A stretch of DNA of 64,000 nt from Deltaproteobacteria bacterium (lineage in GTDB: Bacteria > Desulfobacterota > GWC2-55-46), in assembly GCA_016182655.1 (NCBI GenBank), contig JACPGB010000017.1:1110-65109 (forward strand). The letters run 5' to 3'. Under the pieces are notes generated by a model. That model was not told where the DNA came from. It worked only from the letters and a program-made list of their open reading frames with translations, and did not search any database. Each line of letters begins with the position of its first letter. Position 1 is the stretch's first letter. The position numbers and the translations under genes are program-made. This document shows, piece by piece, positions 35,405 to 59,708 of this stretch.

Positions 35405-35405
35405 G

Positions 35406-36149: not shown

Positions 36150-36323
36150 ATGGAGATGAGCCTTGGTACGAAGTCGGCGGATTTCGGAAAGTGGACGGGC
36201 GGCGGAAGGGGAAGACGGGTGCTTCTGAGAGAACCGGAGCGCTGTGCCGAGTGCAACAGGGTGTATATAAGCCTCTACCCCTTGAGGAGGTGCGAGGAGC
36301 ACGAAGGGCTGGACGAGGTCTAA
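36150..36323 (+). CDS. Small putative Zn-binding protein
   Basis: GGAGG RBS; CAEC...CEEH motif. Confidence 0.55.
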   Translation: MEMSLGTKSADFGKWTGGGRGRRVLLREPERCAECNRVYISLYPLRRCEEHEGLDEV

Positions 36324-36352
36324 GAGGGCGACAAAGACCGGGGGTCAAGGGA

Positions 36353-37976: not shown

Positions 37977-37998
37977 CCGGGAGAGGCACGGAGAAGAG

Positions 37999-39345: not shown

Positions 39346-39577
39346 TCGCAATATGCGCGCGGATTTCGGGATGGACGCGGAGGCCCCTGACAAGATCGCA
39401 AGGCGCGTCCTTCTTGAGGCAAGGAATTCGATCATAGATGCCATGGGCGCGGGCGAATGGAACAGGCTTACGACCAGGGAGAAGGCATATGTCTGCCGCA
39501 AGGCGGCAAAATGTCTCCATGATATGGAGAGGGTTTTGGAGTTCATGTCGTACGAGACGGACGAACGCCGCCTGTAA
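39338..39577 (+). CDS. Hypothetical phage protein
   Basis: 79-aa ORF coupled to the portal stop. Confidence 0.55.
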   Translation: MRNRNMRADFGMDAEAPDKIARRVLLEARNSIIDAMGAGEWNRLTTREKAYVCRKAAKCLHDMERVLEFMSYETDERRL

Positions 39578-39637
39578 ATGCCAGAACCCCGGGGCATGGC
39601 GCGGCGGACGGAAACGAGGGGGGAGGAGGGATTCGAT

Positions 39638-40291: not shown

Positions 40292-40310
40292 AAAAGAAGG
40301 AGGTTCATAG

Positions 40311-41174: not shown

Positions 41175-41231
41175 GGCGGCAGAGGAGGGGCTTAAACGCC
41201 CCTCCTGCCTTAAACCATAATTCATAAAAAG

Positions 41232-41618
41232 ATGGCCATAACCATAGGTTCGTATATCAAACGGGGGTACATCCCGCTTGCAGTCAACAGGTACGCGGGT
41301 ATCGCCTGGCAGGGTGAGCCGCTCCATGAATTTTGGATGTGGAACAGGCAGTTCGTGGAGGACTCGGCAGGTTTAAGGATGATTCAGACCGTCAGGGTCA
41401 ATGACGTCAAAGAGGCGGCCGTAAGGTATTTCCGCGACGGGTGGGTGCCGATCAAGAGAATTGACGATACGCTTCTGAGAAGGATGGAGGCGGCTCTAAG
41501 GAAGTGCGGGGCTGTCAAGGGGGAGATGTACTCAGGGGAGTTCCTTAAGATGCCCGAGCCCCTGCCTGAGGAGTTTTTGAGCCCAGCATTGAAAAAGATG
41601 GCGGGAGGCCAGCGGTGA
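41232..41618 (+). CDS. Hypothetical phage protein
   Basis: 128-aa ORF within the operon. Confidence 0.6.
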   Translation: MAITIGSYIKRGYIPLAVNRYAGIAWQGEPLHEFWMWNRQFVEDSAGLRMIQTVRVNDVKEAAVRYFRDGWVPIKRIDDTLLRRMEAALRKCGAVKGEMYSGEFLKMPEPLPEEFLSPALKKMAGGQR

Positions 41619-41773
41619 GGGAGAGAAGGGCCGTTGAAAGGCTTATAGAGAGGATATACAAGGACCGTCTCAAAAAGACCGGGAGGCTTCCTTCGGGCAA
41701 GGAAACGAAAGAGATAGAGGCAAAGGCGAAGAAGGCGGCGATCGATACGGATAATAGGGGTAGCCGTAAATAA
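41615..41773 (+). CDS. Small basic hypothetical protein (52 aa, not in the ORF track)
   Basis: GGAGG RBS, GTG overlapping the upstream TGA: MRERRAVERLIERIYKDRLKKTGRLPSGKE... Confidence 0.6.
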   Translation: MRERRAVERLIERIYKDRLKKTGRLPSGKETKEIEAKAKKAAIDTDNRGSRK

Positions 41774-41775
41774 GG

Positions 41776-42003
41776 GTGATCATAATGCTCTGCAAAACAA
41801 CAGGCGGCGGCTCCATAGCCGTGCAGGAGATAGACGGCTCGCCGTCCATAACGGGCGTCAAGACGCTCAAGTTCAACAACGGCTCGGTGACCGATTTGGG
41901 CGGCGGCGCGGTGCAGGTGAAGATAAACGACAACTTTGACGGTGGAAATTTCGCGGACACGTACATCGCGTCTGCCGCCGATTGGGACGGAGGTAGTTTC
42001 TAA
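41776..42003 (+). CDS. Small virion-associated protein
   Basis: EIDGSPSITGVKTLKFNNGSVTD, ends DGGNF..DGGSF; coupled to the fibre gene. Confidence 0.65.
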   Translation: MIIMLCKTTGGGSIAVQEIDGSPSITGVKTLKFNNGSVTDLGGGAVQVKINDNFDGGNFADTYIASAADWDGGSF

Positions 42004-44198: not shown

Positions 44199-45434
44199 AT
44201 GGTAAAGATACTCGCAATAGGTCACTCGATAGTGATGGGGGACGAGGACAACATCGATTCCCCGTACAGGGCGGACTCGTCAACGGCCCCGCACATCCCC
44301 GAGGGCGGCTGGAGGTATCAGAACTTTCAGGTCGCGCCGAGATGGGGGCAGAGGAACCAGAACCCGGCCGAGGGCGTGGGCTGGGCCGTGCGCGCCCTCG
44401 ACTATCTGCCTGCGGGCTCGATACAGGTATGGAACGAGGGTGTCTCCGGGGTCGTCTCGTATGACTGGGCCACGACCGGCAATGATTTCATAGGCCAGAT
44501 ATTTACGAGGGGGTTTGAACAGCTCCCGGCAGACCTCGCCTACGCGGTCTACGCCATCTACGCGAACGACGCCCCGGCATCGGTGACAAAGGCCAACTGG
44601 AAGGCGCGGGTCGAGACGGTAATCCAGTACCTTGATGCAAGGAACATAAAGACCATTCTTGTTAAGGACTGGCACAGGGGCGACGGAGATTATTCGTCAT
44701 ATTACGCAAATTACAACGCGGCGGTCGACGAGCTTATCGCGGCCTATGGTCTCCCCCCGGCATTTGACATGTACACGGCCTCGCTTGATAACTTCAACGG
44801 GGCAAAGGATTGGTACAGTGTAGATAACGTCCACCCGGTCGTGGCAGGCCACCAAGGGGTTGCTAAGCTCTTTGCGAATTACCTCGTCACGAACCACATC
44901 GTCGCGGACTCGACGGCAAAGAGGATAATAGCGCATGGGGAGACGGGAGCCGTCGTCTACTGCACGGTGACGAGGGAGGCGGACGGCTATATCCTCGACG
45001 GATATTCCGGGGAGTTTGCGGCCTCAAGCGACTACCCTTATACCTTCCTTCAGGAGCATCCGACGATAAAGGGCCGCTACGAGATAGCCGAGACAAGGAC
45101 CGCGTGGAACGACGGGAAGTATGTCGTGACGGTCTATAAGCAAGCGGGAGCGGACCCGGCTCCGGTGAGCGATGCCGTCATTGCGAGTGGGGAGATGAAG
45201 GTCGAGAACGATATCGAGGTCGAGGAGATAACCCTCTCCGAGATCGAGGGGTCGGCGGTGCTGGCGAAGGAGGGGACGATAGCGTTCATAGAGAAGTGGG
45301 TCTTGAACAGGCTCTCCATAACCGTGAACGGCGACGGCACAGAGACCGTCAGACTCTATGACAACGACGGCTCGACCGTATTGAAGACATGGACATGGGA
45401 CCCGGCGACGAAGACGAGGGCGATGGCAGTATGA
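44199..45434 (+). CDS. SGNH/GDSL-like esterase fused to a virion-type C-terminal domain
   Basis: AIGHSI, NEGVSG, AND and DNVHP blocks. Confidence 0.75.
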   Translation: MVKILAIGHSIVMGDEDNIDSPYRADSSTAPHIPEGGWRYQNFQVAPRWGQRNQNPAEGVGWAVRALDYLPAGSIQVWNEGVSGVVSYDWATTGNDFIGQIFTRGFEQLPADLAYAVYAIYANDAPASVTKANWKARVETVIQYLDARNIKTILVKDWHRGDGDYSSYYANYNAAVDELIAAYGLPPAFDMYTASLDNFNGAKDWYSVDNVHPVVAGHQGVAKLFANYLVTNHIVADSTAKRIIAHGETGAVVYCTVTREADGYILDGYSGEFAASSDYPYTFLQEHPTIKGRYEIAETRTAWNDGKYVVTVYKQAGADPAPVSDAVIASGEMKVENDIEVEEITLSEIEGSAVLAKEGTIAFIEKWVLNRLSITVNGDGTETVRLYDNDGSTVLKTWTWDPATKTRAMAV

Positions 45435-45841
45435 CGGGTGTCTGGGCATGGGGGTACGGCGAAGGGGTTGAAGGCACGGCGTTCTGGGGCTGGATCGAGA
45501 TGCTTGAAAAGCCCATACATGCCTGGGCAAAGGCCGTAAGGGTATGCAGTCCGTCGAGGGTCACTGATAACAGGGTCGTATACAGGTCGGTTGAAGGCAG
45601 AGGCGCTTACCACTTAAACGCAGTCCATGAGAGACGGGGCGGGTTTTCGGAGCCAAAGCGCTCCTCGAAATGGCTTGGGCGAGTTGAGAGTGCAAAGTCC
45701 GCGGACAGGGCCTGGACGGCACGGAGCGTCCGTGACAAGGCAAGTAAGAGCGCATTTGACGGGGCCAGGCAGAAGGTTCAAGGGGTAGAGACCGGCACGG
45801 ATACGGCAAAGGCACTGGCGCGGAAAAACGGAGGCATATGA
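45431..45841 (+). CDS. Hypothetical phage protein
   Basis: ATGA overlaps on both sides. Confidence 0.55.
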   Translation: MTGVWAWGYGEGVEGTAFWGWIEMLEKPIHAWAKAVRVCSPSRVTDNRVVYRSVEGRGAYHLNAVHERRGGFSEPKRSSKWLGRVESAKSADRAWTARSVRDKASKSAFDGARQKVQGVETGTDTAKALARKNGGI

Positions 45842-46725
45842 AGCAACAGTTCATCGTCAATACATCGGATACATTCAAGACCTGGATCTACGAGAACAAC
45901 AGGAGGCTCGCGCCTTCATCGGCGCGTATCACCGTATTCCGGCCGGGCGGGGACTCAAAGCTCGTAGACGACGGGGCGATGGCTATCGCCTCGGACGGGC
46001 TACTTTCGTATGACTTGACAGCCTCCCAAAACTCGGAGCCTGCCGAGAACTACAGGGCCGCGATAACATATGTGCATAACGGCGCGACCTCCTACGCGAC
46101 TCTCTTCTACGACGTCGTGAAGACGAGGCTCGTGAAGGTCATAACCGACGACGACCTCGCGTCCGAACTGCCTCAGTTGAAAGACAGGGGGTGGAGGGTG
46201 AGGGGGACGGCGGACTCGGGGACCGCATCATCTATAGTGGACGCCGAGTTAAAGAGGTACGAGGACGACTACTTCACGGGCGGGACGGCGTACTCCTTCG
46301 ACAAGGACGAGACGAGGGAGGTAACGGCCTTCACACGCTCGACCGGCACGGTTACTGTCGAGGCGTTCTCATCGGCCATAGCAACCGGGGAGAAGTACCT
46401 GCTTACGCGGTCGTTCTCAAGGGAGATACAGCGGGCGTTCGAGAAGGCGGAGGAGCGGATAACGAGGCTCGGCAGGAGGCCGCACCTGATACTCGACCCT
46501 TACGACCTAAGGGAGGTCCACATATACCAGTCGGTCGCGGAGGCGTGCAAGGGGCTCATAAACGATAACGAGTCCCTCTGGCGCGAGATGTGGAAGGAGT
46601 ACGAAAAGAAGGCCGAGGACTCTTTCAGGAACATCAATTTCAAATACGATTCATCGGGCGACGGCCATATAGGCGCCGGAGAGGCCGATTCCGCGATGAG
46701 CGTCATAAGGACGGCGCGGGTATGA
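45838..46725 (+). CDS. Putative head-tail adaptor/connector with Ig-like N-terminus
   Basis: Position and translational coupling; helical C-terminus. Confidence 0.55.
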   Translation: MKQQFIVNTSDTFKTWIYENNRRLAPSSARITVFRPGGDSKLVDDGAMAIASDGLLSYDLTASQNSEPAENYRAAITYVHNGATSYATLFYDVVKTRLVKVITDDDLASELPQLKDRGWRVRGTADSGTASSIVDAELKRYEDDYFTGGTAYSFDKDETREVTAFTRSTGTVTVEAFSSAIATGEKYLLTRSFSREIQRAFEKAEERITRLGRRPHLILDPYDLREVHIYQSVAEACKGLINDNESLWREMWKEYEKKAEDSFRNINFKYDSSGDGHIGAGEADSAMSVIRTARV

Positions 46726-47150
46726 GCTTCGAAACCGTAAGGGCGATAACCGATAACATGAGGGCGGCTCTCGAATCTTTGGGGCTCAGGTTCGCCGTGG
46801 GCGCGGTTGAGAAGGACAATGCGACGGCGGCGTCAATGCTCCCTGCGGGGAGGATTTCCTACGAGGGCGAGTCATTCGAGCCGACTCATGGGGAGAGGCC
46901 GGGTTATTCGGAGGCCGAGTTCGGGATAACGGTGGAGATACGGGCCGGAGACCCGGCAGAGGCTGTAACCGAGGAGCAGAGGTGGGCGCATGCCGTAAGA
47001 GGGTCCATCACAGTCGACGCATTGAACGCCGGAGGGCTTGCGGCTACAAAGCGCGTCAGCAGGGTAAGGGTGCCGAAGGCGAGTGTCGCTAACAACAAGG
47101 AGAGCGTCTCACTTTCCGTCAGGGCGCTTGTGAGATACAGGGTGGATTAG
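46722..47150 (+). CDS. Putative tail completion/terminator protein
   Basis: 142 aa directly upstream of the tail tube gene. Confidence 0.55.
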   Translation: MSFETVRAITDNMRAALESLGLRFAVGAVEKDNATAASMLPAGRISYEGESFEPTHGERPGYSEAEFGITVEIRAGDPAEAVTEEQRWAHAVRGSITVDALNAGGLAATKRVSRVRVPKASVANNKESVSLSVRALVRYRVD

Positions 47151-47168
47151 AGGATAGCAGGAGGGGAG

Positions 47169-48257
47169 ATGGCCAATAACAAGATATACATCGCTATAGG
47201 GGAAGAGGCGGCGAGGGGGACGAAGGAGTCGACGACCGTCGGGTTCGTGCCTGTTTTAAGCCCGTCTATCCCGAAGTTCGAGTTCGACGAGAAGAAGCGG
47301 AGCGAGTTCAGGGGAGAGGAATCGGTAAAGGGCGCGTCGTCGTACGAGCGCATGGGGCAGAGGTGGAGCTCCTCTCTCGATATGCCCTTCTATACCGAGT
47401 CCGGCTCCACAAAGGGGATGGTGGGGAAGATATTGAGGCACTTCTTCGGCAAGGTGACATCCGGGCAGAACGGGGCGACGGGCCAGTACTATCATATGGC
47501 TTACCCGGAGGCAGACCCGTTTTCGGACGCGAACCTCGGGACAAAGGCCCTGACGCTGAACTTCAACATAAACGAGGGCGCGGCGATGAAGAACTGGCCG
47601 TTTGTCGGCGGCAGGGTCAAGGCCCTCTCGTTTGTCCAGGAGGCCGGAAGCCCCCTTAAGCTTACGGCAGAGCTCTTCGGGCAGAAGAGGGATACGCCTT
47701 CCGCTGAAGTCGGAACCCCCGTATTCGCTGACGAGGCTTTAAGGTGCGACTACAATAACCTTACGGTCTATACCGGGGCGATCACCCGGACAGGCGCGGC
47801 CCCTGACTTTACAGGGTTCTCGTTCGGCTCGGCGACTATCATAAAGCCTGACAAGATAACGGTCAAGATAGAGAACGGGATGAAGGACGTCTTGAGGATC
47901 GCGGGCGTCGATTATCCGGACAAGACCCGGATGGGGCAGTTCAAGGTGACGGCGGAGCTCACGATAGATTGGGAGGACCCGGCATCGGGGTTTTCGTCGA
48001 TATCCGAGTTCAACGACTGGGCGGCGGGGGGGAGCTCGACGAACCTCTTTCTCAAGTGGGACACCGGCACGCAGGCCGGGGCCGGGGATAGCCACGGGCT
48101 CTTTATCGACCTCCCGGCTTTAAGGAGGCTCGGCGGCTCGCCCGATTACGGGACGGACAAGGACCCGATGATAACGCTCAAGTACGAGGGATTGTTGAGC
48201 ATTGACACCGGGTACATAGCCGGGGTCATGCTCAAAAATACCGTGGCGGTTATATAG
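47169..48257 (+). CDS. Major tail tube protein
   Basis: N-terminal YIAIGEE..RGT, beta-rich; upstream of chaperone and tape measure. Confidence 0.75.
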   Translation: MANNKIYIAIGEEAARGTKESTTVGFVPVLSPSIPKFEFDEKKRSEFRGEESVKGASSYERMGQRWSSSLDMPFYTESGSTKGMVGKILRHFFGKVTSGQNGATGQYYHMAYPEADPFSDANLGTKALTLNFNINEGAAMKNWPFVGGRVKALSFVQEAGSPLKLTAELFGQKRDTPSAEVGTPVFADEALRCDYNNLTVYTGAITRTGAAPDFTGFSFGSATIIKPDKITVKIENGMKDVLRIAGVDYPDKTRMGQFKVTAELTIDWEDPASGFSSISEFNDWAAGGSSTNLFLKWDTGTQAGAGDSHGLFIDLPALRRLGGSPDYGTDKDPMITLKYEGLLSIDTGYIAGVMLKNTVAVI

Positions 48258-48439
48258 AGAGTAAAAACTTTTTAACCCCCACCCTCGCCCTCCCCAAGGG
48301 GGAGGGGAAAAACAGTTCATAATCCCCCTCAGTCCCCCTTTAGAAAAGGGGGAAGAGAGAAGTCCAGTCCCCTTTCCATCGAGGGAGGGGAGGTAAAGTG
48401 AAGAGGGAGGGGAAGTGAAAAGCAAAAAGGAGATAACCG

Positions 48440-48814
48440 ATGGCGATAATATCGTTCGACAAAGAGGCCCTTATAGATTATGTACCCGCGTACGCGGGGA
48501 ACAGGGAGAGCGCGGACCCGTGTGTCGTGAAGCTTAAGTTCTGCCCGTACTCGCGGGTGCAGCATTACTCGCGCCTGATAGCAACGAGGGCCAAGGGCGG
48601 GGGCGACAACCTCAAGCTCGCCGAGGTCGGGCAGGAGATCCAGAAGAGGCAGTTCGTCGAGAACGTGGAGGGGGTCTCCAACTACTTCGTCGAAGGTGTC
48701 GAGGTGCGCGACCCCGAGAGATTCTATGATACGGCGGACACCGACCTCATACTCGAGGTGATAAAGGCGATGGAGTCTGGCGCGAAGCTCTCAGAAGGTC
48801 AAATAAAAAACTGA
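48440..48814 (+). CDS. Tail assembly chaperone (gpG-like)
   Basis: Ends ...LSEGQIKN on slippery A AAA AAC. Confidence 0.8.
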   Translation: MAIISFDKEALIDYVPAYAGNRESADPCVVKLKFCPYSRVQHYSRLIATRAKGGGDNLKLAEVGQEIQKRQFVENVEGVSNYFVEGVEVRDPERFYDTADTDLILEVIKAMESGAKLSEGQIKN

Positions 48815-49230
48815 CAGCGGGCTTCCGCCTGAGCCTGCTGGCGGCAAGGGACGGAAGCCCATTCGATTGCGGGAGATGCGGCCCCAGGGACCGGACGCAG
48901 AGAAATTGCGGAAACTCGCTGGGTTTGTCGGAGGCGGCAAAGGCGGTCTTCAATTACACGGAAGATGTCGCCGGGGAGCTCAAGGCAAAGGGGGCCGAGA
49001 AGGTCTTCAGCCTCCGGGGCTTGAGGCTATACGAGTGCCCCTTGAGCTTTATTACCTGGGAGACTCGGGAGATGATAAGGGCGGTCTACCTGATGGAAAG
49101 CGGGGGAAGGCTCTTTTTCAGCGGCGGGTGGGGCGACCAGAGCGCGTGGCTTGTCGAGGCGTTCGAGATATTCAGGGCAGAAAATGCGGCGTTCAGGAAG
49201 GATGTGGCGGATGGCGAAAGGGCAGGATAG
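48811..49230 (+). CDS. Tail assembly chaperone -1 frameshift extension (gpT-like)
   Basis: -1 frame open from the slippery site to 49230: LTAGFRLSLL..DCGRC..NCGNSLGLSEAAKAVF...ECP. Confidence 0.78.
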   Translation: MTAGFRLSLLAARDGSPFDCGRCGPRDRTQRNCGNSLGLSEAAKAVFNYTEDVAGELKAKGAEKVFSLRGLRLYECPLSFITWETREMIRAVYLMESGGRLFFSGGWGDQSAWLVEAFEIFRAENAAFRKDVADGERAG

Positions 49231-50131
49231 TCTCAGTAAGGACAGCGGTTACGAGGAGGCGACCGGGGTCGTGCTCGGGTACGAGGCCGCGCTTGCATTG
49301 GTTGAGGAGAGGTATTACATGGCGAGCGCCGCAGTTGAACAATTCAACACTGCAACCGAGAAGACCAAGTCCTCGCTTGACGGTGAATTGTCGGGATTCG
49401 GCTTTGATTCACTTGGAAGAGGCGAATCGATATACGAAATATTGGAGGATTTAAAAAAAAGAAAAGCGGAGATCGCAAATCAAAATGATGAGATTGAGAA
49501 ACAAAATGAGCTCAAGAAGTATGGAATAGATTTAGATACCAAGGCGGCTCATGAGTTAGCGAGCTACACTAAGCTCCGCGAAGAGGCATCCAAATCCTTA
49601 CAGTCTATAGAGACAAAGGCGTACCAGGCCCTCGGGAATGAGCTTTTGAAGCTCGTCGAGATACACAAGTTCTCGATAGGCGAGTTTGCCAAGGCAATGG
49701 CCGAGCAGGTAAAGATAGAGCTTACCGGTCTTGCCGCGAAGGCCGCGATATGGGCGATATATGAGACCGCCATGGGGCTTAAGGATTTGGCCATGGGTTC
49801 ACCGGGGACGGCGGGGATGCATTTTGCGGCGGCTGAGGAGTTTGGAGTGATAGCCGGGGCCTCGCTTGCGGCGGCGGCCGGGGTGCAGGCGCTTGTGCCG
49901 GGGGATAGCGAGGAGCCGTCGTCTTCTTCGTCTTCGTCGTCGGGGAGTTCTTCGTCCTCGTCTTCGGTGCAGGCGTATGATTCGAGCTCGACTGGCGCGA
50001 CCCAGCAGGTAACCGTCAATATCTACAACCCGCTTTCCGAGCAGAACTGGCAGAAGATAGTGGAGGAGAGCATAGTGCCTGCACTTAACAACGCGGCTGA
50101 GAAGAATATAACGATTTCAGTCAATAAATAA
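49211..50131 (+). CDS. Short tape measure protein (306 aa)
   Basis: Follows G/GT; helical Ala-rich, poly-Ser linker, C-terminal QVTVNIYNP. Confidence 0.75.
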   Translation: MAKGQDSLSKDSGYEEATGVVLGYEAALALVEERYYMASAAVEQFNTATEKTKSSLDGELSGFGFDSLGRGESIYEILEDLKKRKAEIANQNDEIEKQNELKKYGIDLDTKAAHELASYTKLREEASKSLQSIETKAYQALGNELLKLVEIHKFSIGEFAKAMAEQVKIELTGLAAKAAIWAIYETAMGLKDLAMGSPGTAGMHFAAAEEFGVIAGASLAAAAGVQALVPGDSEEPSSSSSSSSGSSSSSSSVQAYDSSSTGATQQVTVNIYNPLSEQNWQKIVEESIVPALNNAAEKNITISVNK

Positions 50132-50201
50132 ACAATTTGTTGAATATATGTTTTTTATGGTATATTATGGGTGTCTACATTAAATGATTTTGGAGGGTAA
50201 G

Positions 50202-50948
50202 ATGAAAAAAATAATATTATTGATGGTTTTTCTTTTGACAACAGCCGGGTGCACGGTAACTCACAAGATCATGATAGGCGAGCGGTTTGCGGCGGTGGTC
50301 CCTGAGAAGGTCTTATTTATTAAAGAACCAGCTACGGATGGCAAGGGGTTCGTTGCTTTGAAACCTGTATTGTTTGAAATCGAAGGGGTTGAATGCGGTC
50401 AGGGCAAAAAAGATGTGGAGTGCATATTAGAGTTGGATGAGAAACAAAATTTGAAAGATGCAGATACGATATTTTATAAAATAAAAATCGAGCGTAAAGA
50501 TACCGGATATATCACGGCAGACTATTTTTTCGACCATAGATTTTCCAGGTATCTTCTGCCGCTTGGTCCTAAAAACCAGATCGGATATTTTGCCCGAGCG
50601 GCTACCGCCTTTGATATCAAGACCGATTACGACACGATGTGGAGGGTCGTCGTGGACAGTATCGATGAGCTCGGGTATGTGTCTGCCCAGATGAAGAAAG
50701 AGGACGGATACATAGAGACCTATATAAAAAATGACGGGGACACGAGGAGCAAACTGAGCGCGAGGGTCTCAAGACAGGATGAGTACATGTTAGTCATCGT
50801 AAACGCCAATTCAGAGAATCTGTTGAAGACAAAGGAACACAAGCTCTGGTACGACAACGGCCAGAGCGGCATTTATGCGGAAAGGCTTCTGGACAAGATA
50901 CGGTTGAAGTTCTTTGTGATGCACAGGATGAATGAATCAAAGCCGTAG
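50202..50948 (+). CDS. Lipoprotein A1 (BamC-like C-terminal domain suspected)
   Basis: MKKIILLMVFLLTTAG-C lipobox; GGAGG RBS; AT-richer than flanks. Confidence 0.8.
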   Translation: MKKIILLMVFLLTTAGCTVTHKIMIGERFAAVVPEKVLFIKEPATDGKGFVALKPVLFEIEGVECGQGKKDVECILELDEKQNLKDADTIFYKIKIERKDTGYITADYFFDHRFSRYLLPLGPKNQIGYFARAATAFDIKTDYDTMWRVVVDSIDELGYVSAQMKKEDGYIETYIKNDGDTRSKLSARVSRQDEYMLVIVNANSENLLKTKEHKLWYDNGQSGIYAERLLDKIRLKFFVMHRMNESKP

Positions 50949-51014
50949 AGGACTTTTATTAAGAGGAGACAAAAAGGCGCAAACCTTTCATGTCATAAGA
51001 ACAGGAAGCCGAAT

Positions 51015-51785
51015 ATGAGAAAACTTATATTATTATGCGCTGTTTTTTTGATCCTTATCTGCTCGTGCACATATATTCCGACTATTCCGACTCATAACTT
51101 TATGATCGGGGAGCGGTATGCGGCTATCGTGCCTGAGAAGGTCCTTTTCTTCAAAGGACCTTCAAATAATACAGAACCTTTCAGGATGGAGAAACCTGAA
51201 GAGTTTGTAATCGAAGGGGTGGAGTGTACCATAAGGACAGAGAAAGGGGATTGTCCATTCGATTTCAATATACGGGCGGGCATGCCGAATAACGCTTGTG
51301 ATGTTTTTTATAGGGTCAGGCTTGAAGAGGAAGGGACGGCTTATTTAAGCGCTCTCTATATTTTCAGCCAAAAAATATCAGGGTTTTTGCTCCCGCTCGG
51401 GCCAAAGAGGGAGCAGAGCTGGGGAGACGATACTTTCGAGGTAAGGGCCGGTTTTGATGAGATGTGGGATATTGTGATAAGGGCGGTCCACGACCTCGGA
51501 TATACGATATCCCAAGTGAGAAAAGAGGATGGATATTTATCAACCCATACCCAAGACGAGGGTGAATTCAGGAGCCGCATGGCTATCTGGCTTACAATGA
51601 ACGGAGATTACTCGAGGATAGAGGTAGATGCCACATCGGAACAGCGATATCGTACAAAGGACAAGATTACCGGCGAGGTGCATGTTTCCTGGTACGGAGG
51701 AGGCAAGTCAAGGTACTATCAATATCAATTTCTGGATAAGGTACGGCAGAGGCTGTGGGCGTCTTATAAAGAGGCTAAGAAATAA
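51015..51785 (+). CDS. Lipoprotein B1, paralogue of A1
   Basis: MRKLILLCAVFLILICS-C lipobox; shared IEGVEC, LGY and KEDGY motifs. Confidence 0.8.
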   Translation: MRKLILLCAVFLILICSCTYIPTIPTHNFMIGERYAAIVPEKVLFFKGPSNNTEPFRMEKPEEFVIEGVECTIRTEKGDCPFDFNIRAGMPNNACDVFYRVRLEEEGTAYLSALYIFSQKISGFLLPLGPKREQSWGDDTFEVRAGFDEMWDIVIRAVHDLGYTISQVRKEDGYLSTHTQDEGEFRSRMAIWLTMNGDYSRIEVDATSEQRYRTKDKITGEVHVSWYGGGKSRYYQYQFLDKVRQRLWASYKEAKK

Positions 51786-51788
51786 AAT

Positions 51789-51914
51789 ATGGGAGTGAAC
51801 GATGGCCAAGCGCTTCATTATAAACAAAGGTTACTGGACAGGATACTGGGGAAGTTTTTTGAGCTACACAGGTCGGCTGACCCCAAGCCGCAGAGGGCCG
51901 ATCAGGTAGATTAA
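51789..51914 (+). pseudogene. Orphan C-terminal fragment of an A-type lipoprotein
   Basis: DGQALHYKQRLLDRILGKFFELHR matches the A2 end DGWAFQYKERLLDKIKWKFFELHR. Confidence 0.8.
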
Positions 51915-51962
51915 GCCTTTCTGATCGTTAGGCAGGACCTTTAAACGATTTTGGAGGGTAAG

Positions 51963-52715
51963 ATGAAAAAAATAATATTATTGGCTATTTTACTTTTAAT
52001 CTCCACCGGGTGCTCGATTACTGTAACCCATAAAATGATGGTAGGCGAGGAGTTTGCCCTGATCGTCCCAGAGAAGATCGCTTTCAGCAAAACCCCATCT
52101 GCGGATGGAGAGACTTTTTTTGCCTGGAAACCTGTAAGTTTCGTAATAGAGGGGGTTGAATGCGGCCAGGGCAAAAAGGATGGGGAATGCATCTTGGATT
52201 TGGATGAGAACAAAAGACTCAAAGATGTCAAAACCGTTTTCTATAAAATAAAGCTTGAAAACTGTATACCCGGATATATCGCGGGGGATTATTTTTTCGA
52301 CCCTGATTCGTTGAAGTATTTCATCGATATCGGGCCGAAATATCAGATCGGGTACGCCGCGCGCCAGACCAATTATTTTGATGTCAAGACCAGTTACGAC
52401 AGAATGTGGCGGGTCGTCAGGAACAGTATAGACGAGCTCGGGTATGTCATGTCCCAGATGGACAAAGAGGACGGGTACATGACGACAAATATTAAAAATG
52501 ACGGGGACACGAGGAGCAAATTGAGCGTCTGGCTATCAAAACATGGTGAGTACATTGAGGTCACTGTGGGCGCCAGATCGGAGCATCTGTTTAAGACGCA
52601 GCAATATAAACGATGGGAACCCGATGGCTGGGCGTTTCAGTATAAGGAAAGGCTGCTGGACAAGATAAAATGGAAGTTTTTTGAGCTTCACAGGATGGAC
52701 GAGGCGGCGCAGTAG
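51963..52715 (+). CDS. Lipoprotein A2
   Basis: MKKIILLAILLLISTG-C lipobox; close paralogue of A1. Confidence 0.8.
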   Translation: MKKIILLAILLLISTGCSITVTHKMMVGEEFALIVPEKIAFSKTPSADGETFFAWKPVSFVIEGVECGQGKKDGECILDLDENKRLKDVKTVFYKIKLENCIPGYIAGDYFFDPDSLKYFIDIGPKYQIGYAARQTNYFDVKTSYDRMWRVVRNSIDELGYVMSQMDKEDGYMTTNIKNDGDTRSKLSVWLSKHGEYIEVTVGARSEHLFKTQQYKRWEPDGWAFQYKERLLDKIKWKFFELHRMDEAAQ

Positions 52716-52887
52716 GAATTCCTAAGGAGAGCCACCTGGCACAAGACACTGGATTCCCGCTTAAGGCACGCGGGAATGACGAAATAGTTTTGCGGATCAA
52801 TTCCTGAGTAGGATTATGTAAAGGTCTTTTTAAGAGGTGGAATAACAAGGCGCAAACCTTTCATGTCATAAGAACAGAAAGCCGAAT

Positions 52888-53640
52888 ATGAGAAAACTTA
52901 TATTATTATGCGCTGTTTTTTTGATCCTTATCTGCTCGTGCACATATATTCCGACTATTCCGACTCATAACTTCATGATAGGAGAGCGATATGCCGTTAT
53001 CATACCCGAGAAGGTCCATTTGCTAAAGCGGCCCTCGGCCAATGCAGAACCTTTCGAGGTGGAGAGGCCCGAAGAGTTTGTAATCGAAGGGGTGGAGTGC
53101 ACCATTAGGACTGAGAAAGGCGATTGTCCGTTAGATGCCAAAACCTCCAAAGACGTTTTCTACAGGATCAGGTTTGAAGGGGGAGAGGAGGCCTTTTTAA
53201 GAACTTTTTATATTTTCGGGCGGGGGACATCAGGCTATCTGCTCCCGCTCGGGCCAAGAAGGGAGCAGAACTGGAAAGGAGAGGATACCTTCGAGGTAAG
53301 GGCCGGTTTTGATGAGATGTGGGATATTGCGGTCAGGGCGGTCCATGACCTCGGTTATACGATAACCCAGATGAGAAAAGAGGATGGTTATCTATCGACC
53401 GATACCAGAGAAGAAGGCAACAGCAGAAGCCGCCTGGCCGTCTGGCTTTCGATGGACCGGTTTTACGCGAGGGTAGAGGTCGATGCCACATCGGAGTATC
53501 GAAGTCGGACAAAGGACAGGACGACCGGGCAGGAGCAAGTCTCTCCCTGGTACGAAGGCGGCAAGTCATATTACCAATATCAATTTATGGACAGGATACG
53601 GCAGAGGTTGTGGGCGTCTTATAAAGAGGCGAAGAAATAA
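52888..53640 (+). CDS. Lipoprotein B2
   Basis: N-terminus identical to B1; close paralogue. Confidence 0.8.
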   Translation: MRKLILLCAVFLILICSCTYIPTIPTHNFMIGERYAVIIPEKVHLLKRPSANAEPFEVERPEEFVIEGVECTIRTEKGDCPLDAKTSKDVFYRIRFEGGEEAFLRTFYIFGRGTSGYLLPLGPRREQNWKGEDTFEVRAGFDEMWDIAVRAVHDLGYTITQMRKEDGYLSTDTREEGNSRSRLAVWLSMDRFYARVEVDATSEYRSRTKDRTTGQEQVSPWYEGGKSYYQYQFMDRIRQRLWASYKEAKK

Positions 53641-53656
53641 AACTTCGGGGTGAACG

Positions 53657-54511
53657 ATGGCTTCATGGGCGAAGGTAAAAATATATTACGACACGCTCCT
53701 CGGGCAGAAGGGGGCGGCGCTTACGGCCTCGACTGAGGCCTCGGAGGGGGACTCTGTTGAGAACATAACAGGTATGACCGAGACTACGATGTGGAAGGCG
53801 GCGGACCTTACGGACCCGCACTATATAACGCTAGACACCGGGCTCGGGGCGGTCCGGTCGTCGGCGGACTACATCGCCATTTACGGACACAACCTCGGGA
53901 CTGCGAGCGCGGAGGTCACGCTACAATATTCGGAAGACGGGGTGAATTATACGGACGCTTTCCAGGCTACATGCGTAAGGTCGGACAAGGCCTTCCTGAA
54001 GGAGTTTACGAACCCCGGGGCGAAGAGGTACTGGAGGGTCAAGATAACCGGCCACGGGGTGGAGCCGTGTATTTCGATATGCGCGTGGGGGGTGGCGACA
54101 GAATTGGATTACGCGAGCTCAAGCTACGACCCCAATGAGGAGGAGGCCGTGGCCGAGGTGAATCTCAGCTACGGCGGGCATGTCGCGGGCATACATTCGA
54201 GGTACACGGAAAAGTCGATGTCCCTTAAGTTCGAGGACGTGGACGTGAGGCCCAGCGGGTACTTCGCCGACGGCGCGTACAGGGCCGACGGGGCGATCAC
54301 GGCAAAGGGGTCTGATACGGTGACCCTGTACGAAAAGGTAAGGCGCTGGTGGGACATATCCGGCATGAGGAACTTTTTTGTCGGGTGGGATACCGCCGGA
54401 AAACCGGCGGAGGTCTTCCTCATGAGGCCGGAGGGGAAGTTCAAGAACCCCTTAAAGGGCGGCGGGTGCTACAGGGACATTTCCATTAAACTCAAGGGGC
54501 GGAAGGAGTAG
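53657..54511 (+). CDS. Distal tail-like protein with discoidin/CBM-like domain
   Basis: Position after tape measure; IYGHNL, LQYS.DG, RYWRVKI motifs. Confidence 0.6.
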   Translation: MASWAKVKIYYDTLLGQKGAALTASTEASEGDSVENITGMTETTMWKAADLTDPHYITLDTGLGAVRSSADYIAIYGHNLGTASAEVTLQYSEDGVNYTDAFQATCVRSDKAFLKEFTNPGAKRYWRVKITGHGVEPCISICAWGVATELDYASSSYDPNEEEAVAEVNLSYGGHVAGIHSRYTEKSMSLKFEDVDVRPSGYFADGAYRADGAITAKGSDTVTLYEKVRRWWDISGMRNFFVGWDTAGKPAEVFLMRPEGKFKNPLKGGGCYRDISIKLKGRKE

Positions 54512-54514
54512 TGC

Positions 54515-56170
54515 ATGGCGGACCAGAGGATACAGTACACAGAGGAGCTCGTAGGCGCGAACCACGCGACCAAGTCGGACACCATAAACAGGCTCTCGCT
54601 CGTAGAGCACAATAACGACGGGACCCACAAGAGTGCGAACATTTATTCGGACCTCGTCGCAAAGAGGCCCTGGGTGGATGTAAGGGCGTTCGGGGCAACC
54701 GGCGACGGGGCGACCGACGACACGGCGGCGATACAGGACGCGATAAACTACGCGGCCGCAAACGGCCTCAATGTATACGCGCCCGAGGGGCACTACAAGT
54801 TCACGAACCTCTACTTCCACTACCACGCGACAAGCAACCCCGGCTGGCCGCAGACCGCCGGGTTTGAGGGCAAGCTCGCCTTCTTCGGCGACGGCGCGGT
54901 ATCGGGATACAACTATGCGAACGACGTCTGGAAGCGGACGGTGCTGGAGTCGACCGACGCAACGGGCCCGGCTATCATGATAGACGGCTCCGGGGTGGGT
55001 GCGAGACTGTCGAACTTCAAGATATCGGGGATGTCGATAATCGCGAACAACACGACCTCGGTCTTCGACATCGACGTAGGCAACTACTACTTCATCCTCG
55101 AGGAGCTCTTCATAGGCCAGAAGGGGGCCGGAGGCGGGATACTCGCCGAGGGCATATACACGAACTTCTGGAGGGACGTGAGGATATACGGCGCGGGGAA
55201 GACTGTCTCCGGCTGTGGTCTTACCGTACGCTCCGTCGCCGGGCAGAACGGGGGCGGAAACAACATATTCATAAACGTCTCGACATATAACTTCGAGAGA
55301 GGCTGGGAGATCGGGCACGCCACATACGGCTCAGGGGAGATAATAACGACCGTCGATTGCATAGGGTGCGAGGCCTCGACGCACAAGACCTACGGCGTAC
55401 TCGTGGGGCACGGGGCCAAGAACTTCAACTGGATAGGGTCGTACATAGAGAAGATACAGGACGGGGCGAGCGGGGGCATAGGCATGCTGGTAAAGCACCG
55501 CGCACAGTGCACGCTCGTAAAGGGTTCCTGGTTCTCGGATAACGACATCGGCCTTCAGCTCGGGACGAACGACGCTGACGCGAACCAGAGGGCCTTCGAC
55601 ATGGCCGCAGTCGAAGGGTGCAACTTCCAGAACATCCTCGTCGACGGCGTGCGCAAATACTCGGGCCTCTACAGCATAGGCGGGATAATAAGAGGGAACA
55701 AGTTCGGACAGAGCGCCTCGGCCCCGGGGGCGACATCGGGCGTCTGGGCGGAGGACGCGGCCCACAGGGGATTATCGGTTGAGGACAACGAGTTCTCGAC
55801 GGGGCTTACTACCCCTATCGTCAACGCGCACAGGGTTAATGTGCTTAAGAACCAGAGCGCCAACCGGACCTCGGTAATAAAGATGAGCGACGTAGTGTCT
55901 TTTGCGGCGAACGACGCGACCCCGGACGTATCCGACGGGAGGGTATTCAAGACGGCGAACACGGCGACTACCGTGATCACTGCCCTGGACAACGGCATCG
56001 CCGGGCAGGAGGCGATAATCATCTTCGGGGACGCCAATACCACGGTGGACTTTACGGGAACTAACCTCAAGGGCAACGGCGGGACGGATTTTACGGCGTC
56101 CTTCGGGGACACCATGAGCGCCGTATTCGACGGGACTAACTGGTATTGCGCGGTAGCCAACAACACATAA
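54515..56170 (+). CDS. Tailspike, pectate-lyase-like beta-helix
   Basis: DVRAFGATGDGATDDTAAIQDAI, VYAPEGHY. Confidence 0.85.
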   Translation: MADQRIQYTEELVGANHATKSDTINRLSLVEHNNDGTHKSANIYSDLVAKRPWVDVRAFGATGDGATDDTAAIQDAINYAAANGLNVYAPEGHYKFTNLYFHYHATSNPGWPQTAGFEGKLAFFGDGAVSGYNYANDVWKRTVLESTDATGPAIMIDGSGVGARLSNFKISGMSIIANNTTSVFDIDVGNYYFILEELFIGQKGAGGGILAEGIYTNFWRDVRIYGAGKTVSGCGLTVRSVAGQNGGGNNIFINVSTYNFERGWEIGHATYGSGEIITTVDCIGCEASTHKTYGVLVGHGAKNFNWIGSYIEKIQDGASGGIGMLVKHRAQCTLVKGSWFSDNDIGLQLGTNDADANQRAFDMAAVEGCNFQNILVDGVRKYSGLYSIGGIIRGNKFGQSASAPGATSGVWAEDAAHRGLSVEDNEFSTGLTTPIVNAHRVNVLKNQSANRTSVIKMSDVVSFAANDATPDVSDGRVFKTANTATTVITALDNGIAGQEAIIIFGDANTTVDFTGTNLKGNGGTDFTASFGDTMSAVFDGTNWYCAVANNT

Positions 56171-56179
56171 GAGGCCGGG

Positions 56180-57784
56180 ATGGGACTTACGGAGAGATAT
56201 CTCAAGGAACTGAAGGAAAACGTGAATGTCCCGAACGTAGTCCTCGAATTCGAGCTGGACTCGGGGATGAGGAAGTTCGGGTTTCACACTGGCGGGTTTT
56301 TCGATATCGTCCCGTGTCTCAAGTCCGTATCCTCGTTCCAATCCAAGCTCGACACGAAAAAGGGCTACACGACGAGGGGCGAGATAACGGCGGTGATCAC
56401 CGGGAGGGAGAACTTCCGGGGGCTTCTTAACGGCGAATACCTCAAAAACCGGAGGGTGACGAGGAAGGACGGCTTTGTCGCGGAGGGGTTCCGCTACTCG
56501 GATTACACGGCGACATATTCCGGGATAGTCTCGGACTGGTCGAGGAAGGGCGACGATCTCACGGTTACCATTTCAGACGACCTTATCGACGCCACAACGA
56601 AGATACCCGAGGAGAAAGAGGACAACACCCAGTACATAAGCTATCTCGGGATGAACCCGGCCGACATCATGGCGGACATGCTCGTAAACCGGCTCGGGGT
56701 CTCAGGCGCTTGCGTGGATACGGCAAAGTTCGCCTCGGAGCGCGACCTCTGGCTGAACGGCTGGAAGTTCTCGCGCGTCATTACCGAGCCCGAGGCCGCG
56801 AACGAGTACCTTAACGAGCTCCAGGCCGAGACGAATTCCTTCATAATACACGACGGGGAGAGGATATCGCTTAAGGTCTACGCGCCGCCGATGCCAGGAG
56901 AGACGGTCGAGGAGTGGACGGATAAAGAGATACTGGATGAGAGCTTCTCGCAGAAGAGCGGGTACAGGGACAATTTCTACAACAGGGTCGTCGTCTACTA
57001 CGACTACGACGAGTCCGGGAGCGGCGGGACAGAGAACTTCGAATCCGCCGTGATAGCGTTGGACGCGGCTTCGGAGGACTCGACCCAGTGGGACGAGTCC
57101 TCCACGAAAACTGTGAAGGCGAAGTGGATCAGGTCTTATACTTTCTCGCAGGCCTCGAACATCACGGGAGTGGTGGTGTATCACGCCTCAAAGTCCAACG
57201 GCGAGGGGAGCGGCACCCTCTCGTACAATAAGGCGGGAAATACCCTCCAATGGACTCCTCCTGGAGGCACGGCTGGGACAGCGGTCGAGGTCGCTGAGAG
57301 CGGAAGGTATGACGTAAGCGGCGCGGACGGCTCGATGCTTATAAGGGTAATAGTGGACGCCGGGGCGCTCCCTGCCTCTGACGCAACCGACTATATAGCG
57401 ATATCGCCCTTGAACGGTCCGGCGCTCGCTTCGTCTGTAGCGAATAAGCTCCTGAACTTCTACCGCGACCCGTCTTCGACGGTCTCCTTCGAGGTGGATA
57501 TCAACAACGGGACCTCGAACGGGCGGTTCATAAGGCCGGCGGACCTTAAGGAGATAACCACCGACGAGGCGTCCGACAAGGGTTTGTCGAGCTGGAAGCG
57601 GGAGCGCGTGATGATAACGTCCGTAAGGCCCGATATCGCGGCCGGCAAAGTGGCGGTCGAGGCGATGAGGGCGAAGATGATGCGTAACTACGGGTTCGTG
57701 GCGCAAGCGTCCACCGTCGATTTCGGGGCGGCCTCGAAGGAGACGCGCGCATACGGCTTCGTGGCAAGGTCACATATCTGGTAG
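56180..57784 (+). CDS. Baseplate hub/tail tip protein
   Basis: YSG.V...R, NPADIM.DML, FYNRVVVYY motifs; position. Confidence 0.7.
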   Translation: MGLTERYLKELKENVNVPNVVLEFELDSGMRKFGFHTGGFFDIVPCLKSVSSFQSKLDTKKGYTTRGEITAVITGRENFRGLLNGEYLKNRRVTRKDGFVAEGFRYSDYTATYSGIVSDWSRKGDDLTVTISDDLIDATTKIPEEKEDNTQYISYLGMNPADIMADMLVNRLGVSGACVDTAKFASERDLWLNGWKFSRVITEPEAANEYLNELQAETNSFIIHDGERISLKVYAPPMPGETVEEWTDKEILDESFSQKSGYRDNFYNRVVVYYDYDESGSGGTENFESAVIALDAASEDSTQWDESSTKTVKAKWIRSYTFSQASNITGVVVYHASKSNGEGSGTLSYNKAGNTLQWTPPGGTAGTAVEVAESGRYDVSGADGSMLIRVIVDAGALPASDATDYIAISPLNGPALASSVANKLLNFYRDPSSTVSFEVDINNGTSNGRFIRPADLKEITTDEASDKGLSSWKRERVMITSVRPDIAAGKVAVEAMRAKMMRNYGFVAQASTVDFGAASKETRAYGFVARSHIW

Positions 57785-57796
57785 GAGGAGGGGAAA

Positions 57797-58327
57797 ATGG
57801 CTTATCCGAGCAAGACCTTTACGACTATTTCCGATTCGGCGATCGACGCGGATAGCCCCATTGACGTCTCGCTCATGACGTCGTTTCGGGATAACGACAT
57901 ACATTTGAAGGAATGGCTCGGCCGCGATTATTCGGCAGAGCCGAATCACAGCCACGACGGCGTTAACAGCAAATCGATCTCAGGAGGAGAGACCCTCCTC
58001 ATGGACAGGGACGCAATGACGATCTCGCAGTCGTTCGTGACAGTCGATACCGTAATGCTTTACATACCCGCTGACCTGACCGCGCTCTCATACTGCGCGA
58101 GGACAAAGGTGGAGCTCGCTGGCCGCGCCGACATGAGGCTTAAGATCGGGGCGACGGACGGGACCACGGTTCAGGGGACGCCGGACTCGACGGTGTACGC
58201 CTGGTACGGCCCCGGAACGATAGACGTATCCGCCTTGAGCGGATGGCAGGCATTTGAGGTACAGCTATCGCATTCTGCCGGGAACTATAACGCGTACATC
58301 GACAAGGCCGTCGGCAGGATGACTTAG
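57797..58327 (+). CDS. Small tail fibre/tip protein
   Basis: IDADSPI...RDN...HSHDG motif. Confidence 0.6.
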   Translation: MAYPSKTFTTISDSAIDADSPIDVSLMTSFRDNDIHLKEWLGRDYSAEPNHSHDGVNSKSISGGETLLMDRDAMTISQSFVTVDTVMLYIPADLTALSYCARTKVELAGRADMRLKIGATDGTTVQGTPDSTVYAWYGPGTIDVSALSGWQAFEVQLSHSAGNYNAYIDKAVGRMT

Positions 58328-58338
58328 GGGAGGTCGGG

Positions 58339-58662
58339 ATGGAAGAAAGACTCATAAGGGTGGAAGAGGGGCTTAAAGCCGTTTCCGGGGACCTCTTCGA
58401 GATAAAGGAGGCGCTGAAAGACATCGCGGTCTCCCTTAAGACGCTTGCGGTACTCGAAGAGCGGCATAACGCCGTTACGGACTCGATAAAGCGGGCCTTC
58501 AAGCTCATAAGAAAAAACACCGAGCGGCTGGATTCGGTTGAGAAGGCCCTTCCGAGCCTCGTCATGGCCTCAGGGTGGGTCTTCAAGGCCGTTATCTATG
58601 TCATGGCGGTCCTCGGGCTTGGCGCAGTGGGGACCATAATAAGCGGCGTGCTAAAGGCCTAA
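58339..58662 (+). CDS. Coiled-coil protein with C-terminal TM (XhlA/holin-like)
   Basis: Heptad N-terminus, single C-terminal hydrophobic helix, precedes the endolysin. Confidence 0.6.
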   Translation: MEERLIRVEEGLKAVSGDLFEIKEALKDIAVSLKTLAVLEERHNAVTDSIKRAFKLIRKNTERLDSVEKALPSLVMASGWVFKAVIYVMAVLGLGAVGTIISGVLKA

Positions 58663-58672
58663 AGAGGGAGAG

Positions 58673-59101
58673 ATGCAGATAACCGAGAACTTCAGCCTCG
58701 AAGAGCTGACTAAAACATCGACGGGGCTTCCGAACCTGCCAGGCAAGGCGGAGACGGAAAAGCTCCTGCTGACCGCGGCATACCTGCTCGAGCCCGTCAG
58801 GAAAAGGTGGGGAAAGATAAGGGTTACAAGCGCGTTTCGCTCTGAAGCCGTTAACGCGCGCGTCGGCGGCTCATCAACGAGCCAGCACGTGAAAGGGGAG
58901 GCCGCCGACATCGTACCGGTCGACGCGGACCTGGACGAAGTCTTCGGGTGGATTGCGAAAGACGGGGGGATATGCTTCGGGCAGGCGATACGGGAGAAGA
59001 AGGGCGGCTCTGACTGGATACATTTGTCGCTCCCGAGGGTCGGAGGGCCGAACCAGCAGAGGCTCGTCTATGACGGCAAGGGGTATGCGCCGTATGTGTG
59101 A
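58673..59101 (+). CDS. Endolysin, peptidase M15A family
   Basis: NFSLEEL, SAFRS..VN..VGG...SQH..GEAAD, WIHLS. Confidence 0.9.
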   Translation: MQITENFSLEELTKTSTGLPNLPGKAETEKLLLTAAYLLEPVRKRWGKIRVTSAFRSEAVNARVGGSSTSQHVKGEAADIVPVDADLDEVFGWIAKDGGICFGQAIREKKGGSDWIHLSLPRVGGPNQQRLVYDGKGYAPYV

Positions 59102-59285
59102 CGGGGTGCGGTTATCGCCTGATGAAGCGGATAGGGGACGGTTCAATGGTGATAAGGCGGGGGGGAATGCCTTTTTACCCTCCCCTCAATCCCCTCCCAT
59201 CGAGGGAGGGGAAGTATTAGAAGATACCCGGCTTCTTGCGGCATGGTAGTTTATTTTTGCGGATGAAATCAAGGAGGCAGGTGAG

Positions 59286-59708
59286 ATGACGCCGGTCATA
59301 GGGGACCTGATAACTAATACAGTCGGCAAGGTCGTGGGGAAGCTTGCGGACAGGTATCTGCCTTCCACGATGGGCGAGGTCGAGAGGGCCGAGTTCCAAA
59401 AAGAGGCTGAGAGGCTCGCACTCGAGGAGTACAAGACAGCCGTACAGGATGTTGCTACGGCGAGGGAGCTTGCAGGAAAGGAGAGCGACGGCGCGCCTGG
59501 CTGGACGAAGGTGCTGACGGTTACTCACAGGCCGGCGTGGAGTTTCCTCGTGCTCGGGATATTCGCCTGGACCATAGCCGCGCCGTACGCGGGTTTTCCG
59601 GCCTTTCCGTTGACAGAGGTCCACAAGGAAGTCATGCAGACGGTCATCATATTTTATTTCGGCGGCAGGTCGATTGAGAAGGCGGCCGGGATTGTGTGGG
59701 GAAAATAA
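59286..59708 (+). CDS. 3TM holin (GTA_holin_3TM-like)
   Basis: RPAW..TM..TM FYFGGRSIEK signature. Confidence 0.75.
   Translation: MTPVIGDLITNTVGKVVGKLADRYLPSTMGEVERAEFQKEAERLALEEYKTAVQDVATARELAGKESDGAPGWTKVLTVTHRPAWSFLVLGIFAWTIAAPYAGFPAFPLTEVHKEVMQTVIIFYFGGRSIEKAAGIVWGK

Follow-up and report, generated by a model that had tools for sequence, protein, structure and literature searches.

A lipoprotein gene array next to the tape measure in a candidate gene transfer agent cluster: alleles, insertion slot and possible roles

Why should a head-tail gene cluster carry four related lipoprotein genes in the middle of its tail genes? The question is raised by a 64,000-nucleotide stretch of contig JACPGB010000017.1 (to be referred to as the window) from a Deltaproteobacteria bacterium, assembly GCA_016182655.1. 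Four intact lipoprotein genes, A1, B1, A2 and B2, together with the 3′ remnant of a fifth, are located here between a short tape-measure protein (TMP) gene and a Dit-like tail gene. The answer favored here, at somewhat under an even chance and by analogy with known phage proteins, is that the array encodes moron-like envelope lipoproteins that exclude related tailed particles, and that the stacking of alleles widens the range of particles excluded.

The genes of the array and of its cluster are on the forward strand of the window. A1 (50202..50948, with an alternative start at 50184) encodes a protein of 248 residues, B1 (51015..51785) one of 256, A2 (51963..52715, alternative start 51951) one of 250, and B2 (52888..53640) one of 250. 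An earlier reading of the letters of the window alone, the original prediction, had described four lipobox proteins of about 250 residues between a tape measure and a tail gene. The four open reading frames (ORFs) bear this out, and every signal peptide ends in a Cys residue. The four proteins are the sole members of their family in the source genome. The amino-acid identity is 61% for A1 and A2, 72–75% for B1 and B2, and 34–38% between the A and B proteins. The sequence motifs named in the original prediction are present in all four, but the spacing from GE to PEK is six residues and not four. As had also been noted, the array is richer in AT than its flanks. The GC content of the lipoprotein genes is 0.44–0.49, compared to 0.53 for the TMP gene, 0.59 for the Dit-like gene, 0.564 for the genome and 0.53–0.60 for the flanks, a shift of the kind that marks morons of the HK97 gp15 type.

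The position of the array is shared by related genes. The family is found in 18 of the 96 genomes of the class, all in this order (the capsid gene of the cluster is found in 57 of the 96), and its genes are located mostly just after or just before the TMP gene. A survey of orthologous loci, as proposed with the original prediction, shows that the copy number varies, with one to four copies per cluster. Close homologues are linked to the cluster and are not the unlinked housekeeping lipoproteins that had been considered as an alternative. The family members outside the cluster are two copies in genome G049 and one in a prophage of genome G014. A lipoprotein gene follows the TMP gene in 15 of 46 loci, and in the other 31 the Dit-like gene is next, with no lipoprotein gene between. 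Several different lipoprotein types occupy the same two slots flanking the TMP gene. Across 56 cluster stretches, the lipobox pattern is found in 16 of the 30 extra ORFs in these slots (27 of 30 by eye). Elsewhere in the cluster it is found in none of 139 extra ORFs, a set that includes many spurious antisense ORFs. Pattern scans of viral and metagenome contigs returned cluster loci only.

The TMP gene of the window (49211..50131, 306 residues) is of the rarer of two types, T1, with a variable N-terminal half and a conserved C-terminal half. It is preceded by a pair of tail assembly chaperone genes (48440–48814 and 48925–49230, spanning 48440..49230) with an AAAAAAC slippery site at 48805–48811. 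The Dit-like gene (53657..54511), with an F5/8-type domain, starts 16 bases past the stop codon of B2. No profile names the TMP or the Dit-like protein. Both labels come from the gene order and the slippery site of the tail chaperones, and the gene next to the chaperone pair is taken to be the tape measure for this reason.

A promoter-like leader (50128..50166) is located directly in front of A1 and is the sole such motif in the array. It contains a TAAAC element, a −35-like TTGTTG and an extended −10 element, TATGG-TATATT, with TGGTATATT at 50158–50166, where the original prediction had placed a candidate promoter. The same layout is found in relatives, and the leaders of most loci share a TAAAC..TTTGTG element at similar spacing. 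The motif TRTGnTAnnnT, which was chosen after the data had been seen, is found within 120 bases after the TMP stop codon in 15 of 15 lipoprotein-bearing loci and in 0 of 31 others, among which kin are not independent; L044 (a close relative of L043) and the long-TMP second copies L058 and L062 are left out of these counts. The background frequency of the motif is 226 in 48,446 genome windows (0.5%) and 39 in 1,343 AT-rich windows (2.9%).

How did four diverged genes come to stand in one slot? The original prediction proposed a tandem duplication of an A-B unit. A duplication in place is rejected, because B1 and A2 both cluster with alleles from other species and because, at the junction after B1, the start of a Dit-like gene is fused to an A-type remnant. 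B1 groups with the single allele of G003, with 86% identity and a synonymous divergence (dS) of 0.28. Elsewhere, the dS between the source genome and G003 is 0.41–0.66 for rpoB, lpxC and the core genes, except for TMP (0.92). A2 groups with the single allele of G001 (81% identity), and A1 is closer to the allele of G002 (72%) than to A2. Between G001 and G003 the core genes have dS values of 0.04–0.37 and the TMPs are near-identical (nonsynonymous divergence, dN, of 0.05), with slot alleles that are only 36% identical. Two genomes of the same genus have A alone or B alone, and the existence of such single-gene loci disfavors an obligate A-B heterodimer. Remnants of lost partners can be recognized by eye, as a scrap of the 3′ end of B in G001 and a scrap of the start of A in G003. 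These scraps suggest that the A-B pair probably came first in the genus and that one or the other partner was lost later. In sequencing run X5, from another study, the TMP gene is followed by a different A allele and then by A2, with 20 differences in 854 bases and no B1 between them.

From these sequence comparisons, we infer that the array arose by recombination between haplotypes that had already diverged. In the simplest history, a single crossover at short homology would have linked the Dit start of one haplotype, TMP-A1-B1, with the 3′ end of an A-type gene from another, which carried A2-B2. The leaders of the B genes would have been homogenized later, and the repeat that they now contain (see below) would permit renewed contraction of the array. 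The diversifying selection that had been expected is not observed at the level of whole genes. The whole-gene dN/dS of the lipoproteins is 0.18–0.46, constrained, looser than in the core genes and never above 1, and only a few windows of 33 codons, with small counts, have pN/pS values near 1.

The DNA of the array retains the marks of such events. A 95-base exact repeat covers the end of the leader and the signal peptide of B1 (51006..51100) and of B2 (52879..52973). Beyond it the two genes are 51–90% alike, in agreement with the original description of near-identity upstream and in the signal peptide and of patches of divergence inside. The 12-mer GTGAACGATGGC (repeat family D7) stands after B1 and after B2. 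The copy after B1 (51795–51806) is located in the putative recombination junction (51789..51914). It matches the start of the tail gene after B2, as had been recognized, but it leads into what is left of the 3′ end of a third A-type gene (51800–51914, repeat family D5), a remnant that had been missed. The DNA past the 12-mer enters this remnant and not A2, and the end of the remnant resembles other alleles (P0006 and P0011). Between A2 and B2 there is a REP-like palindrome (52743..52782, with no strand assigned) of the ATTCCC..GCGGGAAT type. This pattern is a genome-wide repeat, with 45 matches when both strands are counted, and it recurs very often in the metagenome runs.

An assembly artefact, a concern raised with the original prediction, is rejected, because the array copies are only 70–82% identical in DNA, independently assembled contigs from three runs of the same study, X1 (which may be the source), X2 and X3, span the junction after B1, and the sequencing depth along the array is roughly even. 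None of the sequencing runs listed as containing the array is from RNA. The A2-B2 link is spanned by a contig of run X2. The A1-B1 link across the 95-base repeat rests on the assembly graph and on the even depth, with no bridging piece among those listed. One contig of run X3, with a depth of about 4, joins position 51005 to 52879 and has A1-B2 only; it may be a genuine contracted variant or else a low-coverage join in the graph.

Each of the four proteins is predicted from models to have an SH3b-like domain followed by a BamC-like helix-grip domain. The latter had been guessed in the original prediction. The model of A1 has a mean pLDDT of 61, with values of 84–88 over residues 141–200, and it shows the helix-grip fold of BamC. 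The best 13 Foldseek rows for its C-terminal half are all BamC chains, with E values from 1.3e-5 to 3.8e-4. None of the four proteins reaches a Pfam cut-off: PF06804 gives 13–21 bits on three of them, the best being 20.6, compared to a cut-off of 25. The DUF3568 and DUF3576 profiles match distant homologues, and the ESM Atlas gives only leads under 0.9 (SH3_3 and DUF3568). The N-terminal domain, modeled from 42 sequences with a pLDDT of 84, is SH3-like. Its best structural neighbor has a VIA Z score of 6.4, a middling value, with an rms distance of 4.2 over 73 aligned residues, and the top six rows are wall-binding SH3b/GW domains. The Foldseek E value is only 0.2 and there is no direct Pfam SH3 match; the profile of the lipoprotein family retrieves SH3_3 repeat proteins.

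Two further Cys residues are conserved in the lipoproteins, as expected of a periplasmic disulphide. The modeled SH3b-like domain, which would bear this disulphide, may possibly bind peptidoglycan. In E. coli, an Asp residue at position +2 decides the membrane to which a lipoprotein is sorted. The array proteins have no Asp there and are predicted to be anchored in the outer membrane, on the periplasmic side. The two modules are shuffled among relatives. The helix-grip domain is found alone in G019, G028 and G041, the SH3-like domain is found with another C-terminal domain in G007, G011, G046, G049, G055 and G067, and further relatives carry both modules. The family is small: a search of 1.84 billion representatives yields 21 clusters at E ≤ 1e-30. 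The predicted complex of the TMP with A1 (score 0.00, mark 0.32) counts neither for nor against an interaction.

The array is part of a 24.5-kb cluster (35141..59708) with host-like GC content, located between ychF and lpxC. The cluster has a helix-turn-helix (HTH) gene and genes for TerS, TerL, portal, scaffold, capsid, tube, chaperones, TMP, a Dit-like protein, tailspike, hub, M15 lysin and holin. No integrase or replication gene was found among the 20 and 27 ORFs scanned by profile or in the ORF lists, and no common 10–14-mer, as a sign of terminal repeats or att sites, between about 500 bases at each end. The capsid gene has a match in 57 of 77 genomes of the order and in 0 of 19 genomes of other orders in the class, with one match per genome except for two genomes with an extra partial match. 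The ychF and lpxC neighbors recur in families f1 and f8, and in the stretches retrieved for f2, f3, f4 and f7 ychF does not stand next to the cluster. A tree of three particle proteins has 12 of 19 splits in common with that of RpoB (22 genomes, Mantel r 0.45, p 0.0002). The dN/dS of the core genes is 0.06–0.14 for pairs with G000, with the rows for the scaffold gene dropped due to alignment failure, and one core gene of G046 appears to have an internal stop codon. By these sequence criteria the cluster appears domesticated, vertically inherited and under purifying selection, and it is a candidate gene transfer agent (GTA). This setting, which is not that of an ordinary prophage, was missed in the original prediction.

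GTAs of the RcGTA type, as defined in PMC8987985, are alike in having a single-copy head-tail cluster, no integrase or replication genes, a short TMP, vertical inheritance and purifying selection. They differ in belonging to another lineage. As an order-wide, single-copy and vertically inherited GTA candidate, the cluster here may merit as much attention as the array itself. The gene at its start (35141–35404, with a weak Sigma70_r4 HTH match) is 60–79% identical across the order and may be the switch of the cluster. Two further variable slots, both swapped among relatives and both without lipoproteins, contain head- or fibre-like genes after the capsid gene (42003–45841, with an Mtd_N protein and a GDSL-like protein) and a pectate-lyase-like tailspike (54515–56170).

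What would the lipoproteins do for a cell with such a cluster? If they are exclusion proteins, they would likely be made in ordinary cells, from their own predicted promoter, and, acting at the envelope, would likely prevent related tailed particles from passing DNA into the cell. Each allele would act on a different phage or particle, by jamming either its receptor or the channel of its incoming tape measure, and collecting alleles would give wider protection. The specificity for the slots flanking TMP, the promoter motif, the patchy distribution and the lateral exchange of alleles are points for this reading. In G014, a helix-grip lipoprotein of the family (L085:4655-5909) is encoded directly downstream of the CI repressor of a transposable (Mu-like) prophage, which we take to be a typical position for lysogenic conversion.

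Periplasmic lipoproteins are known as exclusion proteins: T5 Llp blocks FhuA from the periplasm (PMC9586334), and TP-J34 Ltp targets the incoming TMP (PMC3952083). HK97 gp15 is an exclusion moron located between the tail chaperone and tape-measure genes, and it blocks entry in a tail-dependent manner (PMC3594210). These precedents, together with the G014 homologue next to the CI repressor, favor exclusion at the level of the envelope.

A detailed comparison can be made with these systems. Like the array, gp15 is an extra envelope gene of shifted GC content that has a promoter motif of its own and is inserted in a tail operon, next to the tape measure, and it has distant chromosomal homologues that PMC3594210 describes as being of unknown function. 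In contrast, gp15 is a small inner-membrane protein encoded by one gene of a temperate phage, and the array is a stack of several alleles for two-domain lipoproteins of 250 residues, with no terminator found, and is part of a cluster apparently fixed in the chromosome. T5 Llp, Cor and TP-J34 Ltp are also phage-linked envelope lipoproteins, with Llp and Cor acting on FhuA and Ltp on the incoming tape measure. However, the array proteins have another size and another predicted fold (SH3b-like with helix-grip), and none of the four has a Pfam or PHROG match to the Cor, Llp, Ltp or Bor families. BamC/NlpB, DUF3568 and DUF3576 share the helix-grip fold of the C-terminal domain (Foldseek E of 1.3e-5 to BamC). 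Unlike BamC, the array proteins are under the Pfam cut-off, combine one helix-grip with an SH3b-like domain, and are patchy and linked to the cluster rather than core Bam subunits. By sequence, they belong to no named lipoprotein family. In the open-access literature, no account was found of lipoprotein cassette arrays in a GTA cluster, nor of the protein family, the allele stacking or the domesticated-cluster setting.

Several observations weigh against a role in exclusion. PHROGs gave no match for any of the four proteins, and searches of PADLOC, of BFVD at E ≤ 0.001 and, with A2 as the only query, of 50,697 phage records gave none either. The whole-gene dN/dS values below 0.5 do not support an arms race. 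In other lineages, the C-terminal domain has distant relatives that are encoded by single genes on the chromosome and not in phage contexts (housekeeping contexts in 15 of 251 genomes of the phylum, counting G000), and two members of the order have off-cluster copies (G049). With these relatives and copies, a general role in the envelope is possible. Of the 7 loci that have a lipoprotein in the slot upstream of TMP, only 2 show the strict promoter motif. In contrast to a classic moron, the array has no predicted intrinsic terminator on the forward strand after B2, which is 16 bases from the Dit start, although a Rho-dependent terminator would be invisible to such a prediction. As a result, the promoter could read on into the tail and lysis genes, and the array is described as moron-like rather than as a moron. 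Moreover, blocking entry in all cells would hinder uptake of the GTA's own particles by kin. Of the exclusion or surface module originally proposed, the moron-like cassette with a promoter motif of its own is supported on sequence grounds, but diversifying selection and an obligate A-B pair are not.

The general envelope role leads to an explanation that we consider rather unlikely, in which the genes are hitch-hikers that serve as an outer-membrane assembly helper or a wall anchor, or do little, and have piled up through recombination homology at the TMP 3′ end and the Dit start. BamC-like and SH3b-like folds are generic envelope modules, the distant homologues are singletons in housekeeping contexts, dN/dS is purifying, and at locus L077 the TMP 3′ ends are repeated between cassettes, as homology-driven stacking would produce. 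Mere hitch-hiking does not agree with the lack of lipoproteins in the other variable slots of the cluster, with the sharing of the same two slots by different lipoprotein types, or with the exchange of very divergent alleles across species in intact form. Tandem, recombining lipoprotein alleles also resemble what we presume to be the arrangement of immunity arrays, and the proteins could neutralize periplasmic wall hydrolases or other toxins from related particles or neighbors, with the array as a set of orphan immunity alleles. M23 peptidases are found among the lipoprotein and secreted genes of the upstream slot in G045 and G065, but in these two loci only; the window has no toxin gene beside the array, and the C-terminus of the TMP is conserved rather than variable and has no enzyme domain. 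Immunity is for us an unlikely role. The M23 peptidase genes themselves (L038:980-4755 in G045 and L088:1-2653 in G065) have no obvious signal peptide and are located just before TMP, and they may form hydrolase-inhibitor pairs.

A closer tie to the TMP is suggested by its tree. The split between T1 and T2 types has a support of 100/100, with T1 in two families and two viral contigs; 2 of 49 loci (the second copy of G014, and G037) are not included. T1-type TMPs are beside BamC-type lipoproteins in 9 of 9 cases, compared to 2 of 38 for T2-type, in a sample where kin are not independent and which may represent perhaps two or three events. The lipoprotein could then be an entry helper or kin gate, a partner on the recipient side needed by T1-type tape measures, such that a matching allele admits DNA and stacking widens the range of donors; the domesticated look of the cluster agrees with this. 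On the other hand, no lipoprotein is found at 28 of the 38 T2 loci, Dit comes directly after a long T1-like TMP in G014 (L062, outside the tree), and physical linkage alone can yield an association between TMP and lipoprotein. The near-identical TMPs of G001 and G003 beside alleles with 36% identity weigh against it as well, and against the self versus non-self gating of the original prediction, which is possible. A one-to-one pairing of a lipoprotein with the TMP of its own cell is disfavored, and the entry helper as a whole is improbable, somewhat more so than immunity. A broader form of it, in which an independently evolved GTA of an uncultured order has an exchangeable gate, with SH3b-BamC-like alleles linked to one TMP type deciding whose particles inject and foreign alleles stacked to retune it, is for us about as unlikely as the immunity role. 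Finally, expression from the late operon would place the proteins in the producer cell, where they could mask receptors on the lysing cell or aid lysis and so spare the released particles from debris. The genes are on the same strand as the late genes, with no terminator found before Dit; T5 Llp is termed a lytic conversion protein in PMC9586334, and a stand-alone SH3 protein is proposed as a lysis helper in T1-like phages in PMC13164509. But the cassette brings a dedicated promoter motif with it that loci without the cassette do not have, and most clusters lack these genes and have their core genes intact. We regard this role as very improbable.

If envelope exclusion is correct, the array would represent an undescribed lipoprotein family and combination of folds for anti-phage defence at the envelope, and a domesticated phage cluster would still offer a dedicated site where defence cassettes land, pass from species to species and are stacked. 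If the proteins instead gate the particles of the cluster itself, they are relevant to how the range of recipients of a GTA is limited or directed, and an exchangeable gate would amount to a filter, encoded in the genome, that sorts GTA gene flow into self and non-self.

Several minor observations concern the slots and the tail genes of relatives. In P0052, sequence of the cluster scaffold is joined to a helix-grip lipoprotein; this is probably a mis-called fusion, and it suggests that the cassette may also sit after the scaffold gene. One off-cluster relative in G049 (L084:3493-6584) is an SH3-like lipoprotein of 455 residues encoded after a Mg-chelatase-family gene, which is comM/yifB-like and may have a role in DNA uptake. 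Second, related tail modules with long TMPs are found in the same hosts, G018 (L058:12106-14343, 745 residues) and G014 (L062:1563-4130, 855 residues), and they are possible phage donors of TMP types. In four genomes of family f8, genus g29 (L063-L066), the Dit-like gene has an insertion of about 300 codons, with open frames of 573–586 residues. Elsewhere in the window, a second AT-rich island (6230–7842) contains an unannotated ORF for a membrane-anchored protein of 214 residues, and the ORF at 7312–7842 looks by its motifs like what we take to be a REP-associated tyrosine transposase.

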